64,000 nucleotides of DNA from Acidimicrobiia bacterium (GTDB taxonomy: Bacteria > Actinomycetota > Acidimicrobiia > Spongiisociales > Spongiisociaceae), in contig JBFGLM010000004.1 of NCBI GenBank assembly GCA_041576165.1, positions 1-64,000 of the forward strand. The letters run 5' to 3'. The position numbers and the translations under genes were made by a program. Shown here in pieces: positions 6,001 to 30,634 of this stretch. The stretch's first letter is position 1; each line of letters begins with the position of its first letter. Under the pieces are notes generated by a model. The model worked only from the letters and a program-made list of their open reading frames with translations, ran no database searches and was not told where the DNA came from.

Positions 6001-6101
6001 CGCGGCCGAGGATATCGGTTTGCATCCCGGATCCGGACGATCCGGGGAATCGGGCCCCTGCGTCGGTCCGATCTCGCAACCTGTCTATGCTCACCGCCAC
6101 C

Positions 6102-6314
6102 ATGCAAGGTGTAGTCAAGATCTACGACCCCAGCACGGGTGCGGGCGTCGTCATTCGCGACGACGATCGGGGAGAGGTTTACCTGCGACCCGGTTCGCTG
6201 AAGGGAAGTGTTTTCCGGCTTCTGCGCCAGGGTCAGCGCATCATCTTCGATGTGGAAGAAGCCGAGGGCCGCTTGTTCGCCCATTCTATCCGGATGGGAA
6301 GCGACGGTCGCTAG
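6102..6314 (+). CDS. Cold-shock-domain-like small protein (degenerate RNP motifs)
   Basis: MQGVVKIYD...FRLLRQGQRIIFDV pattern resembles the CSD fold. Confidence 0.75.
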   Translation: MQGVVKIYDPSTGAGVVIRDDDRGEVYLRPGSLKGSVFRLLRQGQRIIFDVEEAEGRLFAHSIRMGSDGR

Positions 6315-6396
6315 GCCGAACTCTCCCGGTCCCGCCCGCCCGCCCCAATGCCCGATCGGTATAGTCAGGCGATAACGATCGCCGAGAGGAGAAGTC

Positions 6397-6630
6397 GTGG
6401 TCCAAGCTTATGTGCTCATCCAGACGGAAGTCGGGAAGGCAGCGCAAGTCGCATCGGCCGTACGGGACATCGACGGTGTAGACACGGCCGATGATGTGAC
6501 CGGACCGTATGACGTCATCGTCAAGGCAGAGGCGTCGGATGTGGACCAGCTCGGCAAGCTCGTGGTGGCGCGCATCCAGGCCATCGAGGGCATTACACGC
6601 ACGCTGACGTGCCCGGTGGTGCACCTCTGA
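6397..6630 (+). CDS. Stand-alone Lrp/AsnC ligand-binding-domain protein
   Basis: VQAYVLIQTEVGKA...VTGPYDVIV...GITRTLTCPVVHL; AGGAG SD. Confidence 0.92.
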   Translation: MVQAYVLIQTEVGKAAQVASAVRDIDGVDTADDVTGPYDVIVKAEASDVDQLGKLVVARIQAIEGITRTLTCPVVHL

Positions 6631-6718
6631 ACCGAGTTCCTGCTCGGAACCTCTCGGGAGAAACGGAGGGCCGCTCGCCTCTCACGGGAAAGAAGCCCGG
6701 CGCCGCTTACGTCGAAGC

Positions 6719-15673: not shown

Positions 15674-16276
15674 CTAGATCTCGTCGAGGAGTTTGCGCTT
15701 CTTCGCCTCGAACTCTTGGTCGGTGAGCACGCCATCCCGCCACAGGCGAGCCAGCTTCTCGATCTCATCGGCCTTCGACAACGGTGCTCCGCCTTCGATG
15801 GCGAGCAACCGCGATTCGCGATACTGGTAGATGAGCGCCTGTGTCTCCTCCGGACTGGGGATGTCGGCATACCGGCTCTGGCCGCCCTCACCCGCCGACT
15901 CGATGATCAGATCGCCGGACCGCAGTATCCGTTCACCGACGGTCTGCGAATAGGAGACGTTGTCGATGCGCTCCAGCGGGATCTCTTTGCCCCGGCGGGC
16001 GATCACGCCCTCCCGGATGATCAGGCGCTCGTTGGTGATGATGTACTTCGTGAACAACCACGAGACCCACTGCCGGGCGCCAACGAACAGCCCGGCGAGG
16101 AGGGCCAAGCCGGCTCCGATGAGCCGAACGGTGCCCTCGAGTGTCGTGAGCAGGACCACCGCCACGACAAGTCCCACGATGAAGGCGACGATCGGGATGA
16201 TCAGCACCTTCCAATGCGGACGAAACTCGGTCTCGACCCGTTCACCGGGGCTGAGCAGTCGTTCCGGATACGCCAT
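15674..16276 (-). CDS. Membrane-anchored bacterial PH-domain protein with C-terminal SHOCT domain
   Basis: Two TMs, YIITNERLIIREG...RILRSGDLIIESAG, LARLWRDGVLTDQEFEAKKRKLL. Confidence 0.9.
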   Translation of the reverse strand: MAYPERLLSPGERVETEFRPHWKVLIIPIVAFIVGLVVAVVLLTTLEGTVRLIGAGLALLAGLFVGARQWVSWLFTKYIITNERLIIREGVIARRGKEIPLERIDNVSYSQTVGERILRSGDLIIESAGEGGQSRYADIPSPEETQALIYQYRESRLLAIEGGAPLSKADEIEKLARLWRDGVLTDQEFEAKKRKLLDEI

Positions 16277-16368
16277 GGGCGGATGATAGGCCAGGCGGCA
16301 TTCGCCGGCGCCGGCCACAGGGCGCCGTTCTTGGCTCAAAAACCATGGGCCACCGGCCATCGTTGAAA

Positions 16369-16442
16369 CGCGAAAACAATCATTGGCTCGCGAAAACGAA
16401 CCAACGCTGTCGTTTGCCCGGGTAAAGACGCGGTCGTAACGT
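16369..16442 (+). promoter_or_regulatory. Promoter of putative ncRNA-1 with upstream tandem CGCGAAAAC motifs
   Basis: CGCGAAAAC at 16369 and 16389; -35 TTGCCC 16414-16419, 17-bp spacer, -10 TAACGT 16437-16442. Confidence 0.7.
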
Positions 16443-16449
16443 GCCGCTC

Positions 16450-16855
16450 GCCGCATAGAGGAGACTCTCAGCGGTGCCTCGGAAACGAGGCAGGCAACCG
16501 GACGGAGACGAACGGTTGCCGAACCCGGACGGTGCTTCGGCACGGGACGGGAGCTCGGAGGTCGCGGATTCGTCCGTGAGCAATGAGTACGGCAGGCAGT
16601 GGGCCTCGCTCACCAGCCGCCGTCTCGGCGCCGGCTGCGGCTGGCGTGGAGAATTGCTCGGACCGGGTTTCGGCCCGGAGCGAGCGAACCGGTGTCGCCG
16701 GCGCTTCGGCGACGGTGGCAGCGGACAGAAGCGGTTGAGAAGGCGCTTCGCACGTCTCGGACGGAGACCGGCCTTCGGGTCGGGTCGCCGAAAGGGACAC
16801 TGAAACCCCGAGAGGGTGCTGACTTCGGTTCGTACTCGCTCGGGGTTTCGCTATG
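16450..16855 (+). ncRNA. Putative structured ncRNA-1 (~405 nt, hairpin chain, GGA-rich)
   Basis: About 11 consecutive stem-loops, 7 TTCG loop-position tetramers plus GAGA/GAAA loops, promoter upstream, terminal hairpin 16802-16849; no credible ORF. Confidence 0.75.
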
Positions 16856-16858
16856 TGC
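16802..16858 (+). terminator. 3'-terminal hairpin/terminator of ncRNA-1
   Basis: GAAACCCCGAG...TTCG...CTCGGGGTTTC followed by GCTATGT. Confidence 0.6.
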
Positions 16859-16939
16859 GTTGCGGTGCAGCTGTAGCCATAGCCACAGCCGCGTCTGGCC
16901 ACAGCTGGGGAGCAATAGAGCGGGGAACGGAACAGCCCC

Positions 16940-17103
16940 AAACGCGGAAAATCCCGAGGGAGTTCTGGCCGAAACCATCACCCTCTCGGGACTTCCACAC
17001 CCTGCAGGTGCTCCAGTGCCCGAAGGTACTGTTCCCCCTGCGGGGCTTCCAGGCCGACCTCTCGGTCTGCCCTTCCCTGCCCCGGGTCACCCCGGTGCAG
17101 TAC
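16940..17103 (-). ncRNA. Putative structured ncRNA-2 (~165 nt, hairpin chain with GGA linkers)
   Basis: Minus strand CCGGG-GTGA-CCCGG, GACC-GAGA-GGTC, CCCC-GCAG-GGGG, CAGTACC-TTCG-GGCACTG, CACCT-GCAG-GGTG, terminal hairpin 16996-16946. Confidence 0.72.
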
Positions 17104-17108
17104 GTGGC

Positions 17109-17183
17109 AATGTAGAACGCTGGCGCCTGCGTGACAACCCCAAACCGCACCTTTGTTTTCGCGTCCTAGCAAAAGATTTCGCG
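17109..17183 (-). promoter_or_regulatory. Promoter of putative ncRNA-2 with upstream tandem CGCGAAA(T/A)C motifs
   Basis: Minus strand CGCGAAATC (17183-17175), CGCGAAAAC (17163-17155), -35 TTGTCA (17137-17132), 17-bp spacer, -10 TACATT (17114-17109). Confidence 0.72.
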
Positions 17184-17214
17184 ATACCGGCGGGGCCGCC
17201 GCAATCGCTGCGAA

Positions 17215-17236
17215 TGTCACAGCCTCCCCGTATAGT
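17215..17236 (+). promoter_or_regulatory. PafBC/RecA-NDp-like DNA-damage promoter
   Basis: TGTCAC-N10-TATAGT, 7 nt before the ATG. Confidence 0.6.
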
Positions 17237-17243
17237 TACACGC

Positions 17244-18047
17244 ATGTCATTGGACACGTTGTCGCCGAGCCGGGCATCGGATTTCAAGCTCTGCCCGCAG
17301 CTGTTCAAGTTCCGGGCCATCGACCGGCTGCCGGAGCCGACCACTGTCTATCAGGCTCGCGGCACGACGGCACACCTGGCGCTCGAGTGGCTGTTCGATC
17401 TGCCTCCCGATCAGCGCCGGCCCGAAGTCCTATACGACCTCTTCCGCAAGGCGTGGACGCAGCTGCGGGGCGACGAGCAGTTCGCCGAGCTGTTTGCGTC
17501 GACTGATGATGAGCGGGAGTGGGGTGTGGAGAGCATGCAAGTACTCGCCAACTACTTCGCGCTGGAAAACCCGGCCGGTGTCGTGCCGGTGGACCGGGAG
17601 CTCGACATGATGGAGGAGGTCGGACAGCTGACGATCCGGGGAATTCTCGACCGCATCGACGAAAACGGGGACGGGGAGCTGGTCATAACCGACTACAAGA
17701 CCGGCAAGGCCCCACCGGAGCGTTATGCGCTCGGTGCCTTCTTCGCCTTGAAGATATATGCGTTGCTCATCCGCAACCGAATGGGCCGTACCCCCCGCCA
17801 GCTGCGCCTCCTGTACCTCGGGAATTCGGTGATGTATCAGATCCGGGTGGACGACGCCCAACTCGATGCCATGGAGCGGCAGCTGTCAGCCTTGTGGTCC
17901 GCCATCAACCGTGCCATCGAGGAACAGCGCTTTCCCCCCCGCCCCTCCCGGCTGTGCAACTGGTGCTCGTTTCAGTCTCGCTGCCCGGCCTTCACCGCCG
18001 AGGCCCCCGGCGGCCCCGAGCAGCTGCGGCTCGCCGCTACCGGTTAG
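17244..18047 (+). CDS. RecB-family PD-(D/E)XK nuclease
   Basis: LSPSRASDFKLCP, RGILDRID...DYKTG, CNWCSFQSRCP (four Cys); real start 17244, not 16599. Confidence 0.92.
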   Translation: MSLDTLSPSRASDFKLCPQLFKFRAIDRLPEPTTVYQARGTTAHLALEWLFDLPPDQRRPEVLYDLFRKAWTQLRGDEQFAELFASTDDEREWGVESMQVLANYFALENPAGVVPVDRELDMMEEVGQLTIRGILDRIDENGDGELVITDYKTGKAPPERYALGAFFALKIYALLIRNRMGRTPRQLRLLYLGNSVMYQIRVDDAQLDAMERQLSALWSAINRAIEEQRFPPRPSRLCNWCSFQSRCPAFTAEAPGGPEQLRLAATG

Positions 18048-22219: not shown

Positions 22220-22393
22220 ATGCAGATCACAGCAACGGAGCCGGTCCCACTCCGAGTCGAAGCAGCCGGCCTGGGCATTTCAGATGCCGAGGAAGCGCTC
22301 GCCGCGGCCGGGATATCGTTCATGACCCAATTCAGCGCGCCGGCGGATCGGTGCGGATGGTGTGCGAGCCGGACCGTCCCGGCGGCCGCCTGA
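22220..22393 (+). CDS. Small hypothetical protein (57 aa, CGWC motif)
   Basis: GGAGG SD, ATG 22220, stop 13 nt before adnA. Confidence 0.65.
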   Translation: MQITATEPVPLRVEAAGLGISDAEEALAAAGISFMTQFSAPADRCGWCASRTVPAAA

Positions 22394-22406
22394 CGGCGGA
22401 GCGCCC

Positions 22407-25388
22407 ATGGCCTACGCTCCCGCCGTGGTCGACTCGCACATCGAACCGGGAGCGTGGGATGCCGCCATCGCTCGCGTCGACGGCCCGCAGCTGATAGTGG
22501 CCGGTCCCGGCACCGGCAAAACGGAGTTCCTCGTCCGGCGGGCGGCCCACCTCATCGATGACCTGGGAATCGCAGCAGACCGCGTGTTGCTCCTCACGTT
22601 CTCGCGCCGGGCCGCTGCGGACCTGCGCCGCCGGGTGGAGGATCGAATCGCACGCTCGACCACCGGAATTCCTGCTTCGACCTTCCATTCGTTTGCGCTC
22701 CGTCTCCTGGAACTGCACGCCCCGGCCGTCCTCGGCTGGTCATCGTTGCCCACCATCCTGACCGGACCGGAGCAAGTGGCGCTGGTAGCGGAGCTGCTGG
22801 CCCAGGAAACGGAGCAGTCATGGCCGGCCCCGTTTCGCGCGATGCTCACCACCCGTACGTTCGCCGCCGAGGTTGCCGACTTCGTGATGCGGAGCCAGGA
22901 ACGGCTGCTCAGCGCAGAGACCCTGGCCGCGCTCGCCGCACAGCGAGCCGACTGGCGGGCCCTTCCAGACTTCGTGCGGCGGTACCACGAGCGGCTGAAA
23001 CGCGACCACCGGATCGATTACGGTACCCTCCAGGCCCAGGCAGTACGGTTGCTCGGCGATCTGACGGTGCGGGCCCAGGTCGCAGAACAGTATCGCTTCG
23101 TGCTGGTCGACGAATACCAAGACACCACAGTCGCCCAGGCCGGCCTGCTGGACGGCCTCACCGCAGTGCGCCGGAACCTCACCGTCGCCGCCGACCCCTA
23201 TCAGTCCGTGTACTCGTTCCGAGGCGCCGAACTCGACAACGTCGCCGAGTTCCCTCACCAGTTCCGGGACCCGACCGGCGCTCCTGCCCGCCGCGTGGTC
23301 CTCAGCACATCGTTTCGGGTGCCCGCTGCGATCCTCGGAGCGGCTGAGCGGCTCACAGCCGGCGAGCTCCCCGGTGGTGCCGGGCCGGTGCAGCCGGCCG
23401 CGCACCAGGGCCGCGTGGACGTCCACCTGTTCGACCAGCTGTCCCATGAGGCGGACTGGATCGCGGAAGAGGTGCAGCGCCTCCACCTAGAGGAGGGCAT
23501 CGCGCTAGACGACATGGCGGTGCTGGTACGGACCAAGCGCCGGATATTGCCCGAGCTCTCCCGTGCGTTGGAACGGCGGTCTATCGCTCACGACAAACCG
23601 GAGTCGCGCCTGGTGGATCATCCGGCCATCCGGCCGGTCTTCGATTGCGTGGCGCTGGCCATGGACGACGGCCCGATGACCGACGCGTCGGCCACTCGAC
23701 TGCTGCTCGGTCCGCTCTTCCGGGCGTCGATCGGCACGCAACGTGACCTCGATCGAATGCGGGCCCGTACGGGTGCCTCGTGGCGAGAGCTGTTCGCAGA
23801 CCATGTCGCTGGGGGACGTCCCATGGCCCTCCTGTTGCAGGATCCCGCCTGGGCGGGTGAGTGGCCGGCCGCCGACGGCTTCTGGCACCTCTGGACCTCC
23901 CTTCCCCAGTTCCCGACCATCGTGGCTGATCCCGACCTGGCCGACCATCGAACGGCCTGGACATCCTTTTCCCAAGCACTGACCCGCCTGGCCGAGCGTG
24001 ATCCCAGAATGACGCTGGCGACATATGTGCAGCTGGCAGATGCCGACGACTTCGAAGCCACCCCCATGCTTTCGTACCGGCGTCCCAACGAAAAGCGGCT
24101 CACCCTGACCACGCTCCATCAGGCCAAAGGCCTCGAGTTCGAAGTCGTGTTCATCGCCGACGCCGTGGAGGGCGTGTTTCCCGACCTCCGGCGCCGGCGT
24201 TCGATCCTGCAGACGGAACGCTTGTCGAACCAAGCGCCGGAAGGCGCCCGGCGCCGGCAGCTCCGCGAGGAGATGCGCTTGGCCTACGCCGCGATGACCC
24301 GGGCGCGGCGCCGCGTGGTGTGGACGGCGACAGAGGCCGGTCTCGACGAGGGCGAAAACCGGCCGAGTCGTTTCTTGCTGGCGGTCGCCGGCACCGACGA
24401 TCCCAGTGCCACCCGGGCGCCTGACAGATCCGGCTCTCCGGTGACGATTGCGGAAGCAGAGGCGCTCTTGCGTTCAACCCTGGCCGATCCTGCCGCGGCC
24501 ATCCCGCTCCGCCTGGCGGCGGCGGCAGTGCTGGTCGCCCGCCCACATCCGGAGTTGCGCGACCCGCGCTCGTTTGCACTCACTCGCCGTCCCGGCCCGG
24601 CCACGGGCGTAGTGCAGTTGCCGCTCCGTATGTCGCCCAGCCAGGCCGTGGCGTACGAACAGTGTCCCCGCCGCTACGTCCTGGAGCGGCGTCTCCGGAT
24701 CGGGAGCGAACCAAGCGTCTACATGGCGTTTGGGTCCCTCATCCACGCCGTGCTCGAGGCGGTGGAGCGGGTTGCGGCGGGCCGCCAGGCCCGCTCTACC
24801 CTCGCGGAGGCGCTGGCGGCGCTGGACAAGCGATTTGCCGACTACGACTTCGGGCCCGGAGCGTGGCGCGACGCCTGGTACCGGCGGGCCCAGCGATGTT
24901 TGCGCAATCTGTATGAACACTGGCCCAGACCCGAGGACCGCGCCGTGCTGCTGGAACACCGCCTGAGGCTCCAGCTGGGCGGCGTGGACTGGCACGGTAT
25001 CGCCGATCGGATCGAGACGGCGAGCGGCCAAGACGGTCTCCGGATCGTGGACTACAAGACAGCCACGCAACCTCCCCCGGCGGCGGAAGCTGCGGTGTCG
25101 CTTCAGCTTGGGTTCTACTTGCTGGCCGCTCGAGCCGACGAGGTCGTCGCCGAGTTCGGCGAACCACGAGAAGCGGAGTTCTGGTACCCGATGAAGACCT
25201 CACGGCCGGACAAGCCGATCGTGCTCGACGCGGCCCGGATCGAGGAGGTGGAGTCCCGGCTGATCGCGACTGCGGACTCCCTGGCACAGGAGGACTGGAC
25301 ACCGCGGCCGAACGAGCGTTGCGACCGGTGCCGGGTCCGGATTCTGTGTCCCGAGTGGCCCGAGGGTCGCGAGGCGTTCGTCCGATGA
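22407..25388 (+). CDS. adnA: UvrD-like helicase/RecB-like nuclease, AdnA-like subunit
   Basis: AGPGTGKT, DEYQD, TLHQAKGLEF, C-terminal DRIE...DYKT; tandem with a paralog. Confidence 0.85.
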   Translation: MAYAPAVVDSHIEPGAWDAAIARVDGPQLIVAGPGTGKTEFLVRRAAHLIDDLGIAADRVLLLTFSRRAAADLRRRVEDRIARSTTGIPASTFHSFALRLLELHAPAVLGWSSLPTILTGPEQVALVAELLAQETEQSWPAPFRAMLTTRTFAAEVADFVMRSQERLLSAETLAALAAQRADWRALPDFVRRYHERLKRDHRIDYGTLQAQAVRLLGDLTVRAQVAEQYRFVLVDEYQDTTVAQAGLLDGLTAVRRNLTVAADPYQSVYSFRGAELDNVAEFPHQFRDPTGAPARRVVLSTSFRVPAAILGAAERLTAGELPGGAGPVQPAAHQGRVDVHLFDQLSHEADWIAEEVQRLHLEEGIALDDMAVLVRTKRRILPELSRALERRSIAHDKPESRLVDHPAIRPVFDCVALAMDDGPMTDASATRLLLGPLFRASIGTQRDLDRMRARTGASWRELFADHVAGGRPMALLLQDPAWAGEWPAADGFWHLWTSLPQFPTIVADPDLADHRTAWTSFSQALTRLAERDPRMTLATYVQLADADDFEATPMLSYRRPNEKRLTLTTLHQAKGLEFEVVFIADAVEGVFPDLRRRRSILQTERLSNQAPEGARRRQLREEMRLAYAAMTRARRRVVWTATEAGLDEGENRPSRFLLAVAGTDDPSATRAPDRSGSPVTIAEAEALLRSTLADPAAAIPLRLAAAAVLVARPHPELRDPRSFALTRRPGPATGVVQLPLRMSPSQAVAYEQCPRRYVLERRLRIGSEPSVYMAFGSLIHAVLEAVERVAAGRQARSTLAEALAALDKRFADYDFGPGAWRDAWYRRAQRCLRNLYEHWPRPEDRAVLLEHRLRLQLGGVDWHGIADRIETASGQDGLRIVDYKTATQPPPAAEAAVSLQLGFYLLAARADEVVAEFGEPREAEFWYPMKTSRPDKPIVLDAARIEEVESRLIATADSLAQEDWTPRPNERCDRCRVRILCPEWPEGREAFVR

Positions 25389-28300
25389 CGTCCTTCGTTC
25401 CAACACCCGAGCAGCGCCGCGTCATCGAGTGGCCACTGGCGCCTGTGCGGGTGGCGGCGGGTGCGGGGACCGGCAAGACCACCACTCTCGCCTACCGGGT
25501 GGCAGAAATGGTCGATCGCTACGCCATCCGGCCCGACCAGGTACTGGGGATCACATTCACCAACAAGGCCGCCGGCGAGCTGGCCGCCCGCATTCGCGAG
25601 GTCCTCGGTATCCGTTTGGAACCGGGCGACGCCGTCGACGTGTTCACCTACCACGGTTTCGCCGCCCAGCTGCTGGGCGACTACGGGCTCCGGGTTGGGG
25701 TCGAACGAGGGTCGGCCGTGGTGACGCCCACCTTCGCCCGCCAGCTGCTGCTTGACGCCGTTACGGTCGCGACGTTCGAGCAAACCGACATCACCGCCCG
25801 CCGCAAGGTGATCAGCGACCTCGACAAACTGTCCTCCGATCTCGGCGACAATCTCCTCACCCCACAGGATCTGGCGGACTACATCCGGCGGTCCGCAGCC
25901 GCCGCCGGGGGGGACATTCCCCAGACAGAGCTCGAGGCAAAACGATCCGAATACGCCACGGTTCTCGGTCACTACTCCGTCCGTAAACGCAGCTTGGACG
26001 CGCTCGATTATGCCGACCTCATTCGTCTCGGCTACGAGCTCGTCCGAGATCATCCCGATACCGCCGCGGCGATCCGCGAGCAGTACCGCCTGGTGCTGCT
26101 CGACGAGTATCAGGACACCAACGCGGCCCAGCGGCGCCTGCTGCAGGCCGTATTCGGCGGAGGATTTCCGGTCACTGCCGTCGGCGATCGCGACCAGACG
26201 ATCTATGAATGGCGGGGCGCGTCCTTGGAGAACTTCGCCCGGTTCCAAGAACATTTCCCCCAGGAGGACGGAACCCCTGCCGGCAACGCAGGGCTGACGT
26301 TGAATCGGAGAAGTGGCGCACGCATTCTCGATGTGGCGAACATCGTTCGATCCCAGGTACGGGGTGAACCCGTCGATCCCCTCCGGCCCCTGGACGACGC
26401 GCCGGCGGGGACGGTGTCGGTGGCCTGGCATCGCACCTCCCGACTGGAAGCCGATGCCATTGCTGAGGAGGTGGCGCGCCTCCACCGCGAAGAAGGTGTC
26501 CCGTGGAGAGAGATGGCCGTCCTCTTCCGCAAGAACAAGGACATCAGCCTGATCAGAGATGCTCTGGAGGATCACGGCGTACCCATTCAGGTGGCCAACC
26601 TGGGCGGACTCCTCACCGTTCCCGAGGTCGTTGAGGTGCATGCCTGGCTGCGGGTGCTGGCAGATGCCGACGACACACCTGCCCTGGCCCGGCTGCTCAT
26701 GGGGAGCCGGCATCGGGTCGGGATGAGCGACATGCGCAAGTTGGCAGATTGGGTACGGGCCCAGGATGACGACCCCGCTGACGAGGATGAGGCACTCCCG
26801 CAGCACACACTGGTGGAGGCTCTGGAACACCTCGACCGAGTCGAACTCAGCGACGACGGGCGGGCCGCCGCAGTTGCATTCGTAAACATGTTCCGACGAC
26901 TGCTCGCTGCGGCCCAAGGCAGTTCGTTGGTCGAGCTGGTTCAGCACATCCTGGCCGAGACCGACGCGTGGCGGGACGTGGCCGCGATGCCGGAGACGGC
27001 CCAACTGTCCGCGCGCCTCAATCTCTACCGGTTCCTCGACCTGACGGAGAGCTGGAGCCCGTTGGAGGGACGGCCGTCGCTGCACGCCTTCCTCGCGTAT
27101 CTGGAACTCATGCAGGAAGAGGACATCGAAGAGCTCGACACAGCCCGCATCTCAGATGACGACGCCGTGACGCTCCTCACCATCCATCGGGCCAAGGGCC
27201 TCGAGTGGGATGCAGTGTTCATTCCGGCCGCGTACCGCAACAACTTTCCGAGCGGCGTGCGGCTCTACGAAGACCCATACGTCCAGGCCGCAATCCTGCC
27301 CTATGAGCTACGCCTCGATCGGGCGGACCGACCACCGATCAAGGCGGAGATGACCCAGCGCGACCGCCAGGCGCTCCTCAAGGATCGCCACGCCGACCAG
27401 GAATGGCGGCTGGCGTACGTAGCCGTCACCCGGGCTAGGCGGTATCTCTACCTGAGCGGGGCAGCGTGGACGGGCACTCCCCGGCCCAACAAGACCCCGG
27501 CCAAACCCAGTGCGTTGCTCGAGCTGGTTGCCGGCCTCCCCCACGTGTCGCGAACGGCGTGGGTGGACGATCCGGGTGAGCGTCCGGAAACGCTGCGTTA
27601 CGGGCCCATGGACGCCAGCCCGGACCCCCTTTTCCCCCAAGGTTGGGACGCAGCGTTACGGGCCGCCATTGAAGATCCCGGCACCGTTGTCACCTGCGCC
27701 GTCGAGCACAGCACGGTCGAGGCGTACCATGCCAAGGTGTCCGAATTCCAGGAGATGCTCTTCTCACTGCCGGACCCCGTGGACGACAGTCCCGAGCCGG
27801 AGCCACTCCGTGCCTCTGTGACAGGTCTAGTGACGTACGCCACCTGCCCCCGGCGTTACTACTGGGCCGAGATCGATCGACTGCCCCGCCGCGCATCACC
27901 GGCGGCCCGACGCGGCGTCGATCTGCACCGCCGGATCGAGATGCACAACCGGGGGGCAATTCCGTTCGATGATCTCGAACCAGATCTATATGACGTCGTG
28001 CCTGCCGAGAACGAAGGAGCGGAAGAAGCCGAGTCGGCGTACCAGCGGTTCAAGTCATCCCGGTTCGCCCAGTCGCAGCCTCGCTTCATCGAGGTCCCAT
28101 TCGACCTCCGTCTCAACGATGACGCCCGGATTCGCGGCCGCATCGACGCCATCTACGAGCATGGCTCCGACCATTGGGAGATCGTCGATTTCAAGAGCGG
28201 CCGGCCCTCGCACGATCCAGCAGCCGTGGTCCAGCTCCAGGCCTATGCACTGGCGGCCCGGCGAGCCGGCTTTGCACCCTACGTACCCGACCGGCTCGAT

Positions 28301-28519
28301 GTGACCTTTGCCTATTTCGGCGGCGGGCTGACTGAGCGGACCCATTCGGCCGACGAGGCCTGGGTCGATGAGGCCGAGCGAGATCTCCTCTCCATCGTGA
28401 GGCTCATCGAGACGGAGCAGTTCGAGCCGACGCCGTCCGCCGTCTGTCCCAGCTGCGATTTCTTGAACTTCTGCCCCGCCGGCCAGGCATGGGTCGATGA
28501 GCACGCACCAACCACCTAG
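25385..28519 (+). CDS. adnB: UvrD-like helicase/RecB-like nuclease, AdnB-like subunit
   Basis: [30 protein letters not shown]...DFKSG; ATGA overlap with adnA. Confidence 0.88.
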
Positions 28520-29021: not shown

Positions 29022-30062
29022 CTGCACGGATACCGGTTGCACCGCTGGGACGGCGATCTTCACTGGGACGAGATCACGGTCCCTCGACCGGGAGCCGGTG
29101 AGGCGCGTATCAGCGTCGAGGCCTGCGGGATCGGTGGGACGGTCGTCCGGTATGTACATGGCAGCCTCAGCCATGATCACGCACTGCTTCCACGGGTACC
29201 GGGCCACGAGCTCGTCGGAATTGTGGATGCGGTCGGCAACGTCGAAACCGACGCGCACCTGGTGGGACGGCGTGTGATGGCGTACTTCTATCTGATCTGC
29301 GACGAGTGCGGCCCGTGTAGAACCGACGCCGAGCCGAGATGCGAACGCCTGTCCGGCCGGGTAGGCGTCCATCGCGATGGAGGATACGCCTCGTCGGTGG
29401 TGCTCCCCATCAGCAACCTGTTGCCAGTGCCCGACGGCGTCGACCCGGTAGCCGCCACTGTCATCCCTGATGCAGTGGCTACCCCCGTCCACGTACTCCG
29501 GCGCACCGGCACCACTGCGTCAGATCGAGTGGTCGTCATCGGCGCAGGTGGCGGGGTCGGCATTCACATGGTGCAGGTAGCGGTGCATGCAGGCGCCGCA
29601 GTGGTCGGGATCGACGTCGGGTCGGAGAAAACCGCCGCGATCGCTCGGTATGGAGAGTCCCGCGATGCCTCCCGCGGGTGGGAACGATTGAAGGCCCCAT
29701 CCCTCTTCAACGGCGAACTGCCGACGGTAGTGATTGATCTGGTGGGAAAACCCGAGACGCTCGACTGGGGATTCAGCGCGCTGGCCTCCGGCGGGCGCAT
29801 GGCCATACTCGCTTCGTCTGATGACGTGTCGTTCACGCTCGGACCCCGCCGGCTGGTCTTGCAGGAGCTGAGTTTGCTCGGATCCCTCTATGCCTCACGC
29901 CGGGAAGTGATGGAAGCCGCCGACTTGATAGCCCGCCGATTCGTACAACCCGTGATCGGCGAGGTGGTGGGACCGGAACGAGTACCGGCCGTACACGCGC
30001 AAATAACACACGGCGATCTGATCGGGCGCGCCGCAGTGGTATGGGCCAGGGGCGCCCGATGA
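29022..30062 (+). CDS. Zinc-dependent alcohol dehydrogenase (MDR)
   Basis: GHE, structural-Zn CDECGPC...C, GAGGGVG; start CTG 29022 (or TTG 29037). Confidence 0.9.
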
Positions 30063-30634
30063 AACGTTGTGCGTGGGTCCCAGCGGATGACCCTCTCTAC
30101 GTCGCGTATCACGACGCTGAATGGGGTGTACCGGTCTATGACGACGCTGGCTTGTTCGAGCTGCTGACACTCGAAGGCGCTCAGGCCGGCCTGTCGTGGC
30201 GGACAATTCTCAGCAAGCGCGCCGGATACCGACAGCTCTTCCACGGTTTCGACCCCGCAGCCGTTGCGGCCATGACCCCAACCGACGTGGACCGGCTCAT
30301 CGAAGACCCTGCAATCGTGCGCCATCGAGGCAAGATCGAGTCGACCGTCACCAATGCCCGGGCGATCCTGGCGCTACCGGACGGTGATTTCGCCGGCTTC
30401 ATCTGGGGATTCGTCGGCGGCCGCCCGGTGGACGGCAACCGCCGTGCCGTCACCGACCTGCCCGCCCACACTGAGCTCTCCCGCCGGGCGTCGGTAGAGC
30501 TGAAGCGCATGGGCTTCCGGTTTGTCGGGGCCACGACCGTCTACTCGTTCTTCCAGGCGGGCGGATTGATCAACGACCACACCCTGGATTGCTTCCGGTA
30601 CGCCGAAGTTCTGCTGCTATCCGGCGGAGGCTGA
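30059..30634 (+). CDS. tag: DNA-3-methyladenine glycosylase I
   Basis: RCAW, YHDAEWG, LEGAQAGLSW, NDHTLDC. Confidence 0.96.
   Translation: MKRCAWVPADDPLYVAYHDAEWGVPVYDDAGLFELLTLEGAQAGLSWRTILSKRAGYRQLFHGFDPAAVAAMTPTDVDRLIEDPAIVRHRGKIESTVTNARAILALPDGDFAGFIWGFVGGRPVDGNRRAVTDLPAHTELSRRASVELKRMGFRFVGATTVYSFFQAGGLINDHTLDCFRYAEVLLLSGGG

Follow-up and report, generated by a model that had tools for sequence, protein, structure and literature searches.

The gap at positions 16369-17183 of the window (the whole stretch of DNA analysed, 64,000 nucleotides of the Acidimicrobiia bacterium contig JBFGLM010000004.1) is occupied by two convergent RNA genes, a long one on the forward (+) strand and a short one on the reverse (-) strand. 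Our results suggest that these are probably two paralogous stand-alone genes for structured sRNAs, which share twin-box control and may act in trans by binding protein. The short-form (S) and long-form (L) RNAs represent a new family of sRNAs, and the regulon of this family has an unusual link to replication. The features of the locus are:

15674-16276, - strand: bPH_2 + SHOCT membrane-protein gene, conserved and flanking the RNA array opposite the nuclease gene
16369-16377 and 16389-16397, + strand: twin box of the long (+) RNA gene, CGCGAAAAC, 20 bp apart
16414-16442, + strand: sigma-A-type promoter of the (+) RNA, -35 TTGCCC (16414-16419), 17-nt spacer, -10 TAACGT (16437-16442)
16448-16853, + strand: long-form (L-type) RNA of ~405 nt with predicted ends, from fold and model match
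Parts of the L-type RNA: 5' hairpin H1 (~16449-16476), variable chain of tetraloop hairpins, core-like 3' part (16691-16853)
16802-16849, + strand: terminator hairpin of the (+) RNA, conserved stem CCCCGAG...CUCGGGG, short U run
16943-17103, - strand: short-form (S-type) RNA of ~160 nt with predicted ends, from fold, alignments and covariation
Parts of the S-type RNA: H1; H2 (GAGA loop); H3 (UUCG loop, conserved internal loop); terminator
16947-16996, - strand: terminator hairpin of the (-) RNA, homologous to the (+) 3' hairpin at 16802-16849
17109-17137, - strand: promoter of the (-) RNA, -35 TTGTCA (17137-17132), 17-nt spacer, -10 TACATT (17114-17109)
17155-17183, - strand: twin box of the (-) RNA gene, CGCGAAATC (17183-17175) and CGCGAAAAC (17163-17155)
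17231-18047, + strand: PD-(D/E)XK (AddB/Cas4-like) nuclease gene (Pfam PF12705, E 5e-36), sharing the twin-box region

The flanking genes are separated by 967 bp (PH-domain gene start 16276, nuclease gene start 17244), and the next-largest internal gap listed in the window measures 718 bp (6001-6718); in-frame upstream extensions of both flanking ORFs overlie the gap, and a crude gap finder gave the 967-bp gap no rank. An earlier note, made from the sequence alone, had described a mirror-image unit here, and its elements were found again. The two CGCGAAA(A/T)C motifs per side, 20 bp apart, were borne out by direct reading and by pattern search, and on both sides we could read a TTG -35, a 17-bp spacer, a TANNNT -10 and a following GCC(G/A)C, where 16 nt separate the twin box from TTGCCC on the + side (GCCGC after the -10) and 17 nt separate it from TTGTCA on the - side (GCCAC after the -10). 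A simple promoter scan reported the (-) promoter only (9/12 consensus positions; 0.2 expected in shuffles), not the (+) promoter. The 3' hairpins, which the earlier note had taken to be homologous (16802-16849 on the + strand, 16996-16947 on the - strand), proved to be so and have the make-up of intrinsic terminators, with a G+C-rich stem (16-19 pairs) and UUUC or UUUUCC after it; a simple terminator scan, which asks for 5 T in 8, passed them over on account of their shorter U runs. The tail-to-tail ends, expected ~85 bp apart, were placed ~90 bp apart by the predicted 3' ends of the two RNAs. The (-) twin box also lies ~25 nt upstream of an inferred promoter of the divergent nuclease gene, whose ATG (17244) is preceded at 7 nt by a -10 that we read by eye (TATAGT, 17231-17236); NCBIfam matches for this gene were below cut-off.

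The predicted folds agree with the chains of tetraloop hairpins that had been proposed. Thirteen local hairpins follow each other in the (+) RNA (z -9.75) and four in the (-) RNA (z -4.76), and for neither RNA did any shuffle fold as well. An alignment of 31 short-form sequences showed compensatory change, with changes on both sides, at 32/48 base pairs. Paired cells made up 93.1% as compared to 81.3% in shuffles, and compensatory cells numbered 192 as compared to 59 (0/500 shuffles reached either value), while control alignments with the partners slid by 1-3 columns gave 33-56% paired and 23-50 compensatory cells. The base pairs are therefore kept via compensatory change above the level of the controls, as in a structured ncRNA. 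The 5' hairpin and the terminator are common to both forms, and all that sets the long form apart from the short one is a series of additional hairpins, which is hypervariable. Conserved parts are the 5' hairpin, the internal loop of H3 and the terminator, with the invariant stretches lying inside stems, although the invariance of the terminator stem is partly built in, since most loci were gathered with a pattern demanding this stem and our covariance model (R1, built from short-form relatives) was trained on them. The 6-mers enriched in 133 dereplicated RNA bodies were CGCAAG (7.9x), GGAAAC (5x) and CUUCGG (3.3x, 293 copies).

We consider it extremely improbable that the gap holds no RNA genes and is explained by a gene for a small protein, by a repeat element or by chance. 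The gap is crossed by several ORFs (50-157 aa), but their GC content by codon position is flat (0.56-0.68 / 0.55-0.77 / 0.67-0.73), unlike that of the four flanking genes (0.64-0.73 / 0.41-0.46 / 0.76-0.83), and on this composition small protein-coding ORFs were rejected. The indels seen between relatives do not come in threes, the fold is backed by covariation, and the window's assembly contains just two copies of the RNA, those in the gap; the view of the locus as non-coding RNA genes is upheld by both composition and fold. One 268-nt contig from an RNA library equals 16482-16746, inside the (+) RNA, though such libraries can carry DNA. Neither the (-) RNA nor the flanking genes received a contig from this run, and from such contigs one cannot judge absence, strand or ends. 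The contigs of two DNA sequencing runs cover only parts of the locus.

Model R1 matches the (-) RNA, one of its own training sequences (E 2e-27), and the 3' 163 nt of the (+) RNA (16691-16853, E 2.6e-15). This match, together with the common 5' hairpin and terminator, agrees with the paralogy that had been suggested. With the same model the RNA was detected in 34/36 genomes of seven sister families, mostly in two copies each, and outside the order in 2/114 genomes of the class. BLAST found matches to the (-) terminator stretch in 6/16 genomes of other families in the order, and an exact pattern scan of species genomes gave at least 119 stretches, nearly all labelled as Acidimicrobiia/Actinomycetota MAGs. 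An Rfam covariance-model search, named in the earlier note as a check on novelty, pointed to no known family: Rfam 15 had no match at gathering score in the whole 64-kb window or in 20 homologous loci (117 kb), and at E up to 10 the region 16200-17300 gave chance-level matches only (best E 0.021), mostly to eukaryotic miRNA/lncRNA models. Full-text literature searches found no account of the RNA family.

Homologs between the PH-SHOCT and nuclease genes, another check proposed at the outset, were found in relatives, where the usual order is nuclease gene, short RNA, long RNA and PH-domain gene, in tandem. The flanks (bPH_2/SHOCT gene, PD-(D/E)XK nuclease gene) were conserved in 98/125 loci and synteny of the bPH_2/SHOCT gene was seen in 69/125; in relatives the distance between the nuclease start and the nearest box is mostly 60-125 nt. 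The mirror-image unit is thus present in the window but is not the conserved form, as relatives have the genes in tandem and one genome has them back to back. In the window the long RNA is inverted locally, which gives the convergent layout. The distance from the end of the last RNA to the PH-domain gene, which has the same orientation, is 60-200 nt in most relatives, as would be expected if the RNAs were cis-acting leaders (attenuators) of the PH-domain / AMP-binding operon that usually lies downstream on that strand. We find this very unlikely, since each unit has its own promoter and strong terminator and the units stand in tandem. In addition, 26 loci among the 119 pattern-scan matches listed have neither neighbour gene, the three of these that were annotated are convergent with unrelated genes, the long RNA of the window is directed away from the PH-domain gene and one genome has the two genes back to back.

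The box consensus over 176 unique units is TCGCGAAA(A/T)C, paired at 20-21 bp. Family promoters have a -35 TTGNNN, 17-18 nt and a -10 TANNNT, with boxes at about -60 and -80, and throughout the family the -35 is found 25 nt from the start of the proximal box. Related terminator hairpins for which 800 nt or more of upstream sequence was available numbered 170; a box on the same strand stands in those 800 nt for 169 of them, a twin box for 147 and an opposite-strand box for 26, and these counts support the single control element that had been claimed for both genes. All four CGCGAAAWC matches of the 64-kb window fall in the gap; the count itself is unremarkable (1.75 expected, 13/100 shuffles reach four), and what stands out is the arrangement as two mirrored pairs. 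The twin-box pattern occurs three times in the whole 5.1-Mb assembly (reversed control pattern, none) and at 2-7 sites per genome in five other genomes, which had one control match overall. Within the class, 111/201 genomes have a twin-box site as compared to 10 control matches; outside the class no enrichment was observed (the pattern matched in 21 genomes and its control in 19). In the class the twin box is a feature of the window's order and of some genomes of ~1 Mb, and most other families are without it. Four single twin-box sites in other genomes look like chance or sit inside genes, and these were set aside. One single site precedes disA, with the weaker CGCGAAT form.

Outside the RNA genes, the twin box recurs at the rpmH/dnaA control region. 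In an unbiased survey it was present (at most one mismatch) 327-396 nt upstream of dnaA in 20/28 loci, with 0/28 on the other strand and 0/28 inside the gene as controls. In Acidimicrobiia genomes of ~1 Mb that are without the RNA, the rpmH/dnaA control region was the sole twin-box site (6/6 checked). The boxes in the dnaA region do not keep the box-to-(-35) spacing of the RNA genes, and they lie 28-50 nt from the rpmH promoter, which is on the other strand. The third twin-box site in the window's assembly is at nrdJ, on a contig of 2.3 kb whose origin may be a different organism. The initial sample had nrdJ at 3/20 single sites, and an unbiased survey found a twin box before nrdJ in 4/29 genomes; this low count rules out nrdJ as a general member of the regulon, and we read the nrdJ link as lineage-specific because of it.

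An A run at the end of each box and a spacing equal to two helical turns (20-21 bp) are also features of phased A-tracts that bend DNA or of UP-like contacts for RNA polymerase, and either could take the place of a protein operator. That the element seemingly serves promoters on both sides, and that its distance to the rpmH promoter varies, would fit such a role. We nevertheless hold it to be unlikely, as the CGCG part is conserved as much as the A run and there are merely 2-7 sites per genome. Furthermore, the element is kept in the 1-Mb genomes, which are AT-rich and where A runs are common, yet CGCGAAA...CGCGAAA is found once per genome. No box was found within 1500 nt upstream of 16S in 4/4 complete genomes, so the rRNA operon lacks the element and a general strong-promoter element is ruled out.

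As did the earlier note, we infer a regulator protein and trans action of the RNAs. Each RNA gene comprises a sigma-A-type promoter, twin boxes upstream of it and an intrinsic terminator with a conserved stem, and one sequence-specific protein would bind the boxes and activate the promoters from this upstream position. RNA output would then follow whatever signal the box-binding factor reads at the dnaA region. No transcription-factor gene adjoins any of the annotated sites, whether at the RNA array, in the dnaA region or elsewhere. MtrA was set aside as a candidate box binder: the motifs given for the mycobacterial dnaA promoter in the consulted part of PMC2945938 (CACGCCG/CACGAGG or GTCACAgcg) differ in sequence from the box. 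The DNA element predates the RNA family, being present in the 1-Mb genomes without the RNA, and this would be a case of an existing regulon recruiting RNA genes. More speculatively, the twin box might be the mark of a replication or cell-cycle regulator not seen before, whose RNA arm, titrating a protein, was acquired in one order. S and L RNAs in step with initiator control would feed back on replication, on nucleotide supply or on RNA turnover. If true, the combination of such a regulator with an RNA arm would be a cell-cycle ncRNA circuit outside Proteobacteria.

Acidimicrobiia are abundant in soil, sea and wastewater. To our knowledge few of them have been cultured, and their gene regulation is largely unstudied. 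The results provide an order-wide, new family of structured sRNAs with a testable fold and precise gene models, together with a short and rare cis-element that connects them with the rpmH/dnaA region and, for certain lineages, with the ribonucleotide reductase gene. The twin box can also be used as a DNA-probe handle to fish out the putative regulator.

As for the action of the RNAs, it is quite possible, if somewhat short of probable, that they work in trans as a decoy or scaffold for a protein and not by base pairing. We favour protein binding because every hairpin loop is a closed UUCG or GNRA tetraloop and the conserved parts are H1, the H3 internal loop and the terminator. Closed loops are still compatible with base pairing through linkers or after processing. 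The RNAs could instead be classical base-pairing riboregulators of mRNAs, with the twin-box regulon (e.g. dnaA) as possible targets in a feed-forward loop, an explanation that we take seriously but find less than likely. Their genes stand alone, with a promoter and a terminator apiece, the sibling copies are under one control element and additional copies occur at unrelated places, all as expected for such regulators, and pairing with a target could involve the conserved purine-rich linkers and the GGAG stretch of H3. Against it, the loops are all of the tetraloop types, the invariant stretches lie inside stems and the middle part of the long form varies freely between relatives.

Among known RNAs, protein binding brings to mind the polymerase-binding RNAs of other bacteria, and some bacteria carry two 6S paralogs per genome. 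The S and L RNAs could do the work of 6S/Ms1, whereby an abundant RNA binds RNA polymerase and adjusts how much of it is free: two paralogs per genome are found here too, the 5' and 3' terminal hairpins suit a stable, abundant RNA, and 6S RNA (RF00013) was absent from 5/5 genomes of the order in a search that was positive in 5/14 controls. The window likewise gave no match to RF00013. Ms1 and 6S are described, in the part of PMC4191392 available, as a long hairpin with a central bubble, whereas here only local hairpins were folded, in the minimum-energy as in the consensus structures, as chains without 5'-3' pairing; 6S was rejected on both model and fold, and Ms1 on the fold. Ms1 fails by synteny as well, as its genes are flanked by HAD-IB hydrolase and oxidoreductase genes according to the main text of PMC9130861, which has no word beginning with 'Acidimicrobi', and the flanks here are the bPH_2/SHOCT and PD-(D/E)XK nuclease genes. 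A 6S/Ms1 role thus appears decidedly unlikely, and the likeness may be limited to an actinobacterial structured sRNA, probably abundant, with a possible protein-binding function.

The raiA motif has a model in Rfam. Its RNA, reported in Acidimicrobiia in the part of PMC10861870 consulted, is likewise a structured ncRNA of the same class, but the S and L RNAs match no Rfam model (1.1-kb region to E = 10; 20 homologous loci). They may be compared with three further systems. CcnA is a cell-cycle-controlled ncRNA of Caulobacter and resembles the S and L RNAs in having a promoter element common to replication-control genes, although it belongs to another phylum and has no sequence relation to them. 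Qrr1-5 and OmrA/OmrB are sibling sRNAs under one regulator, which act through a conserved single-stranded seed; duplicated genes with a common promoter element and conserved ends are found here as well, but no exposed seed-like stretch is evident. RsmX/Y/Z and CsrB/C are hairpin chains of variable number ending in an intrinsic terminator, and their paralogous protein-sponge genes are often in tandem and have an upstream activating sequence for GacA/UvrY. This is in line with our paralogous genes and their one upstream element (147/170 units), by which activation would occur here too. The two groups differ in the loops, which are closed UUCG/GNRA loops here and GGA-bearing ones in CsrB/RsmZ, and in the element, which here is a direct twin box that is also found at rpmH/dnaA.

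Every one of the four CGCGAAAWC matches in the window falls within the 967-bp gap between a bPH_2/SHOCT gene and a PD-(D/E)XK nuclease gene; they form two pairs on opposite strands, with the boxes of each pair 20 bp apart. On both strands the box pair is followed by 16-17 nt and then by a TTG-type -35 and a TANNNT -10 with a 17-nt spacer between them, exactly as described in an earlier note made from the sequence alone, and the hairpin chains and homologous 3' hairpins that it listed were all found in the gap:

15674-16276, (-) strand: bPH_2/SHOCT gene, one flank of the gap
16414-16419 and 16437-16442, (+) strand: -35 (TTGCCC) and -10 (TAACGT) of the (+) RNA promoter
16802-16849, (+) strand: terminator hairpin ending the predicted (+) transcript
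16996-16947, (-) strand: homologous terminator hairpin ending the predicted (-) transcript
17137-17132 and 17114-17109, (-) strand: -35 (TTGTCA) and -10 (TACATT) of the (-) RNA promoter
17244-18047, (+) strand: PD-(D/E)XK nuclease gene, the other flank

A promoter scan gave the (-) promoter 9 of 12 consensus positions, with 0.2 such matches expected. The predicted 3' ends of the RNAs lie ~90 bp apart, close to the ~85 bp claimed for a tail-to-tail arrangement. As folded, the (-) RNA (165 nt) forms four local hairpins (z -4.76) and the (+) RNA (409 nt) thirteen (z -9.75), and for neither of them did any shuffled sequence fold equally well. ORFs in the gap do not show the GC distribution over codon positions that is typical of real genes. 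The sole indication of expression for the RNA genes is one 268-nt contig from a metatranscriptome library, which equals 16482-16746 identically, entirely within the predicted (+) RNA, and which hints at transcription without being proof of it.

To look at conservation we used BLAST against 40 relatives, and the terminator stretch was found in 6 genomes. All six belong to the window's order but to families other than its own, the stretch often occurs there as two or three tandem copies, and the loci also have CGCGAAA boxes. An exact-pattern scan for the terminator stem, in which each prokaryote species was represented by one genome, gave at least 119 stretches, and nearly all those listed are Acidimicrobiia or Actinomycetota MAGs by title. 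The matches listed, the six relatives and the window together gave 197 terminator hairpins. Of these, 170 had at least 800 nt upstream; a same-strand box occurred within those 800 nt in 169, a twin box (two same-strand boxes at 20 or 21 bp) in 147, and an opposite-strand box in only 26. The consensus of 176 unique units reads gtCGCGAAAwc, 11 nt, ggtCGCGAAAAc, -35, 17-18 nt, TAnnTT, with 25 nt from the start of the proximal box to the start of the -35. Several loci have short tandem repeats near the RNA units or between them (L002 1160-1225, L005 (-) 1590-1700, G097:C1:1333333-1333953 and others), namely ccagtct-type heptamer runs, cgcgactcgtaactcg-type units and, in several genomes, CGCGAAT heptamer arrays.

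The units come in two lengths. In the short form, 61 of the 176 units, the proximal box lies 150-175 nt from the terminator, and in most of the remaining units, the long form, 225-475 nt; the (-) RNA of the window is short (173 nt) and the (+) RNA long (418 nt). RNAalifold of 31 short-type sequences gave the following consensus elements:

H1: outer stem, internal loop and inner stem with a GNRA cap
H2: hairpin with a GAGA or UUCG loop
H3: hairpin capped by a UUCG loop, with AGAC and GGAG in its conserved internal loop
Terminator: the fourth and last element

In this alignment 93.1% of cells were paired vs. 81.3% in shuffles (0/500 as high), two-sided changes were seen in 32 of 48 pairs vs. 22.8, and compensatory cells numbered 192 vs. 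59 (0/500 as many), which bears out the covariation expected of a structured RNA. Sliding the partners by 1-3 columns left just 33-56% paired. Eight pairs of the terminator stem are invariant, partly since the collecting pattern required them. Long-type RNAs have H1, a GGAGU stretch and the terminator in common, with a middle part hypervariable in both length and sequence. The 6-mers enriched across 133 dereplicated RNA bodies were tetraloop motifs, CGCAAG (7.9x), GGAAAC (5x) and CUUCGG (3.3x, 293 copies), and no further repeated motif was prominent.

A covariance model built from short-form relatives (R1) was searched over 151 genomes of the class. Seven sister families of the order supplied 36 of these, and 34 had the RNA, mostly in two copies; outside the order it matched 2 of 114, one marginally, and in the family of ~1-Mb genomes 0 of 35. 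Its only hits in the window's assembly were 16943-17108 (-), a member of its training set, and 16691-16853 (+), which lies outside that set (E 2.6e-15). Of 24 same-family genomes, BLAST detected the RNA in none; a syntenic RNA whose terminator is shorter occurs in one genome of the nominal family. The assembly (G000, with the window on contig C4) may be mixed or mislabelled: its DnaA (contig C7) is 53-55% identical to the nominal family vs. 60-67% to other families of the order, it has two NrdJ N-termini (contigs C138 and C44), of which one, encoded on a 2.3-kb contig, is most similar to family f2, and its stated contamination is 7.5%.

The usual gene order is nuclease (-), short RNA (+), long RNA (+), PH-domain gene (+) and AMP-binding gene (+). 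A PH or nuclease gene lies within 2.5 kb in 98 of 125 loci, and both in 46. In the window the short RNA keeps its usual place beside the nuclease gene and only the long RNA is inverted, so a local rearrangement has produced the convergent pair. The reading of the gap as sibling RNA genes with a shared upstream element is supported, and the mirror-image symmetry is incidental. In one complete genome the two RNA genes are arranged back to back. Neither neighbour gene is present at 26 of the 119 pattern-scan loci among the matches listed, and at the three of these that were annotated the RNA is convergent with a TetR/MMPL pair, a SpoIIE-type phosphatase gene and a methyltransferase gene. Since such copies adjoin unrelated convergent genes, the RNA genes stand alone, and a role as cis-acting leaders is very improbable. 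Elsewhere in the window, 5-13 kb from the RNA genes, are two adjacent UvrD-helicase + PD-(D/E)XK nuclease genes that resemble an AdnAB pair (22362-28519) and a gene for a methyladenine glycosylase (30041-30634).

The twin box also occurs apart from the RNAs. The window's assembly has 3 sites vs. 0 control sites, five other genomes have 2-7 each with 1 control match in total, and in the class 111 of 201 genomes have a site vs. 10 control matches, concentrated in the window's order and in ~1-Mb genomes (42 of 47, one site each). Beyond the class the pattern is not enriched: 21 genomes match it and 19 match the control. Among 20 single sites from 13 genomes, 8 precede dnaA, 3 precede nrdJ, 4 mark additional RNA loci and 5 are unassigned; all six sites checked in ~1-Mb genomes are upstream of dnaA, and on contig C7 of the window's assembly a twin box with one mismatch lies 345 nt before dnaA. 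In an unbiased survey starting from DnaA (at most one mismatch, two unpublished genomes left out), 20 of 28 loci had a twin box 327-396 nt upstream on the dnaA strand, with 0 of 28 on the other strand and 0 of 28 inside dnaA. This box falls between the divergent rpmH and dnaA genes; a conserved rpmH promoter on the opposite strand is 28-50 nt away. In one family (L213, L217-L220, L223) a DnaA box, TTGTCCACA, starts ~27 nt past the proximal box, so a putative box-binding factor and DnaA may sit side by side. The same survey design for nrdJ gave just 4 of 29; the assembly's own nrdJ site is on the 2.3-kb contig, which may be a contaminant because its product most resembles another family. In four complete genomes the 1500 nt upstream of 16S had no box, so the twin box is no general feature of strong promoters.

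The nuclease gene is divergent from the short-RNA promoter, with the nearest box mostly 60-125 nt from its start, and may be co-controlled from the twin box. L185 (G034:C19, 542-720) has a twin box and promoter before a different ~110-nt RNA candidate with an unrelated terminator hairpin; the regulon may include this as a second type of RNA. At L157 (G044:C8, 630-1472 (-)) a twin box with canonical spacing to -35/-10 precedes a ~256-aa ORF with no match in Pfam or NCBIfam. A weaker CGCGAAT twin at the start of disA in L193 (G167:C11), the gene for the DNA integrity scanning c-di-AMP synthase, may be due to chance. At L172 (G191:C25, ~1081-1200) GTGG-type repeats ~10 nt apart before an mraZ-like ORF, which we take to be probable MraZ boxes, matched the pattern by chance.

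Taken together, our results show two stand-alone, structured and conserved RNA genes with a rare upstream element that they share with the rpmH/dnaA region. We think it rather probable that the twin box binds one sequence-specific protein, which would activate the RNA promoters from ~-60 and ~-80; its core TCGCGA is its own reverse complement, and use by promoters on either side fits this. The mycobacterial MtrA motifs in the available part of one published account differ from the twin box (PMC2945938). As all loops are closed tetraloops and the conserved part is shape plus an internal loop, the RNAs would act by binding a protein, a tentative proposal that may well prove wrong. Action by base pairing is less likely, and a 6S- or Ms1-like role improbable.

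The novelty suggested by the earlier note agrees with Rfam 15, which had zero matches in the window and none in 20 homologous loci; at E up to 10 the RNA region gave chance-level matches only, mostly to eukaryotic miRNA/lncRNA models. Another 718 bp of the window (6001-6718), without an ORF of coding-like composition by a crude filter, had no Rfam match. Full-text literature gave nothing relevant on Acidimicrobiia small RNAs, nor on the box sequence with dnaA. Neither known 6S RNA nor Ms1 was recognised here: the 6S model had no match in 5 genomes of the order, and Ms1, in the accessible parts of the reports, is a long hairpin with a central bubble (PMC4191392) flanked by HAD-IB hydrolase and oxidoreductase genes (PMC9130861), whereas these RNAs lack that fold and these loci those flanks. 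As far as those parts describe Ms1, identity with it was rejected on both grounds. The feature is real. It represents a new sRNA family whose general kind is familiar (sibling sRNAs that share a promoter element) and whose hairpin-chain build and link to the initiator region are unusual.
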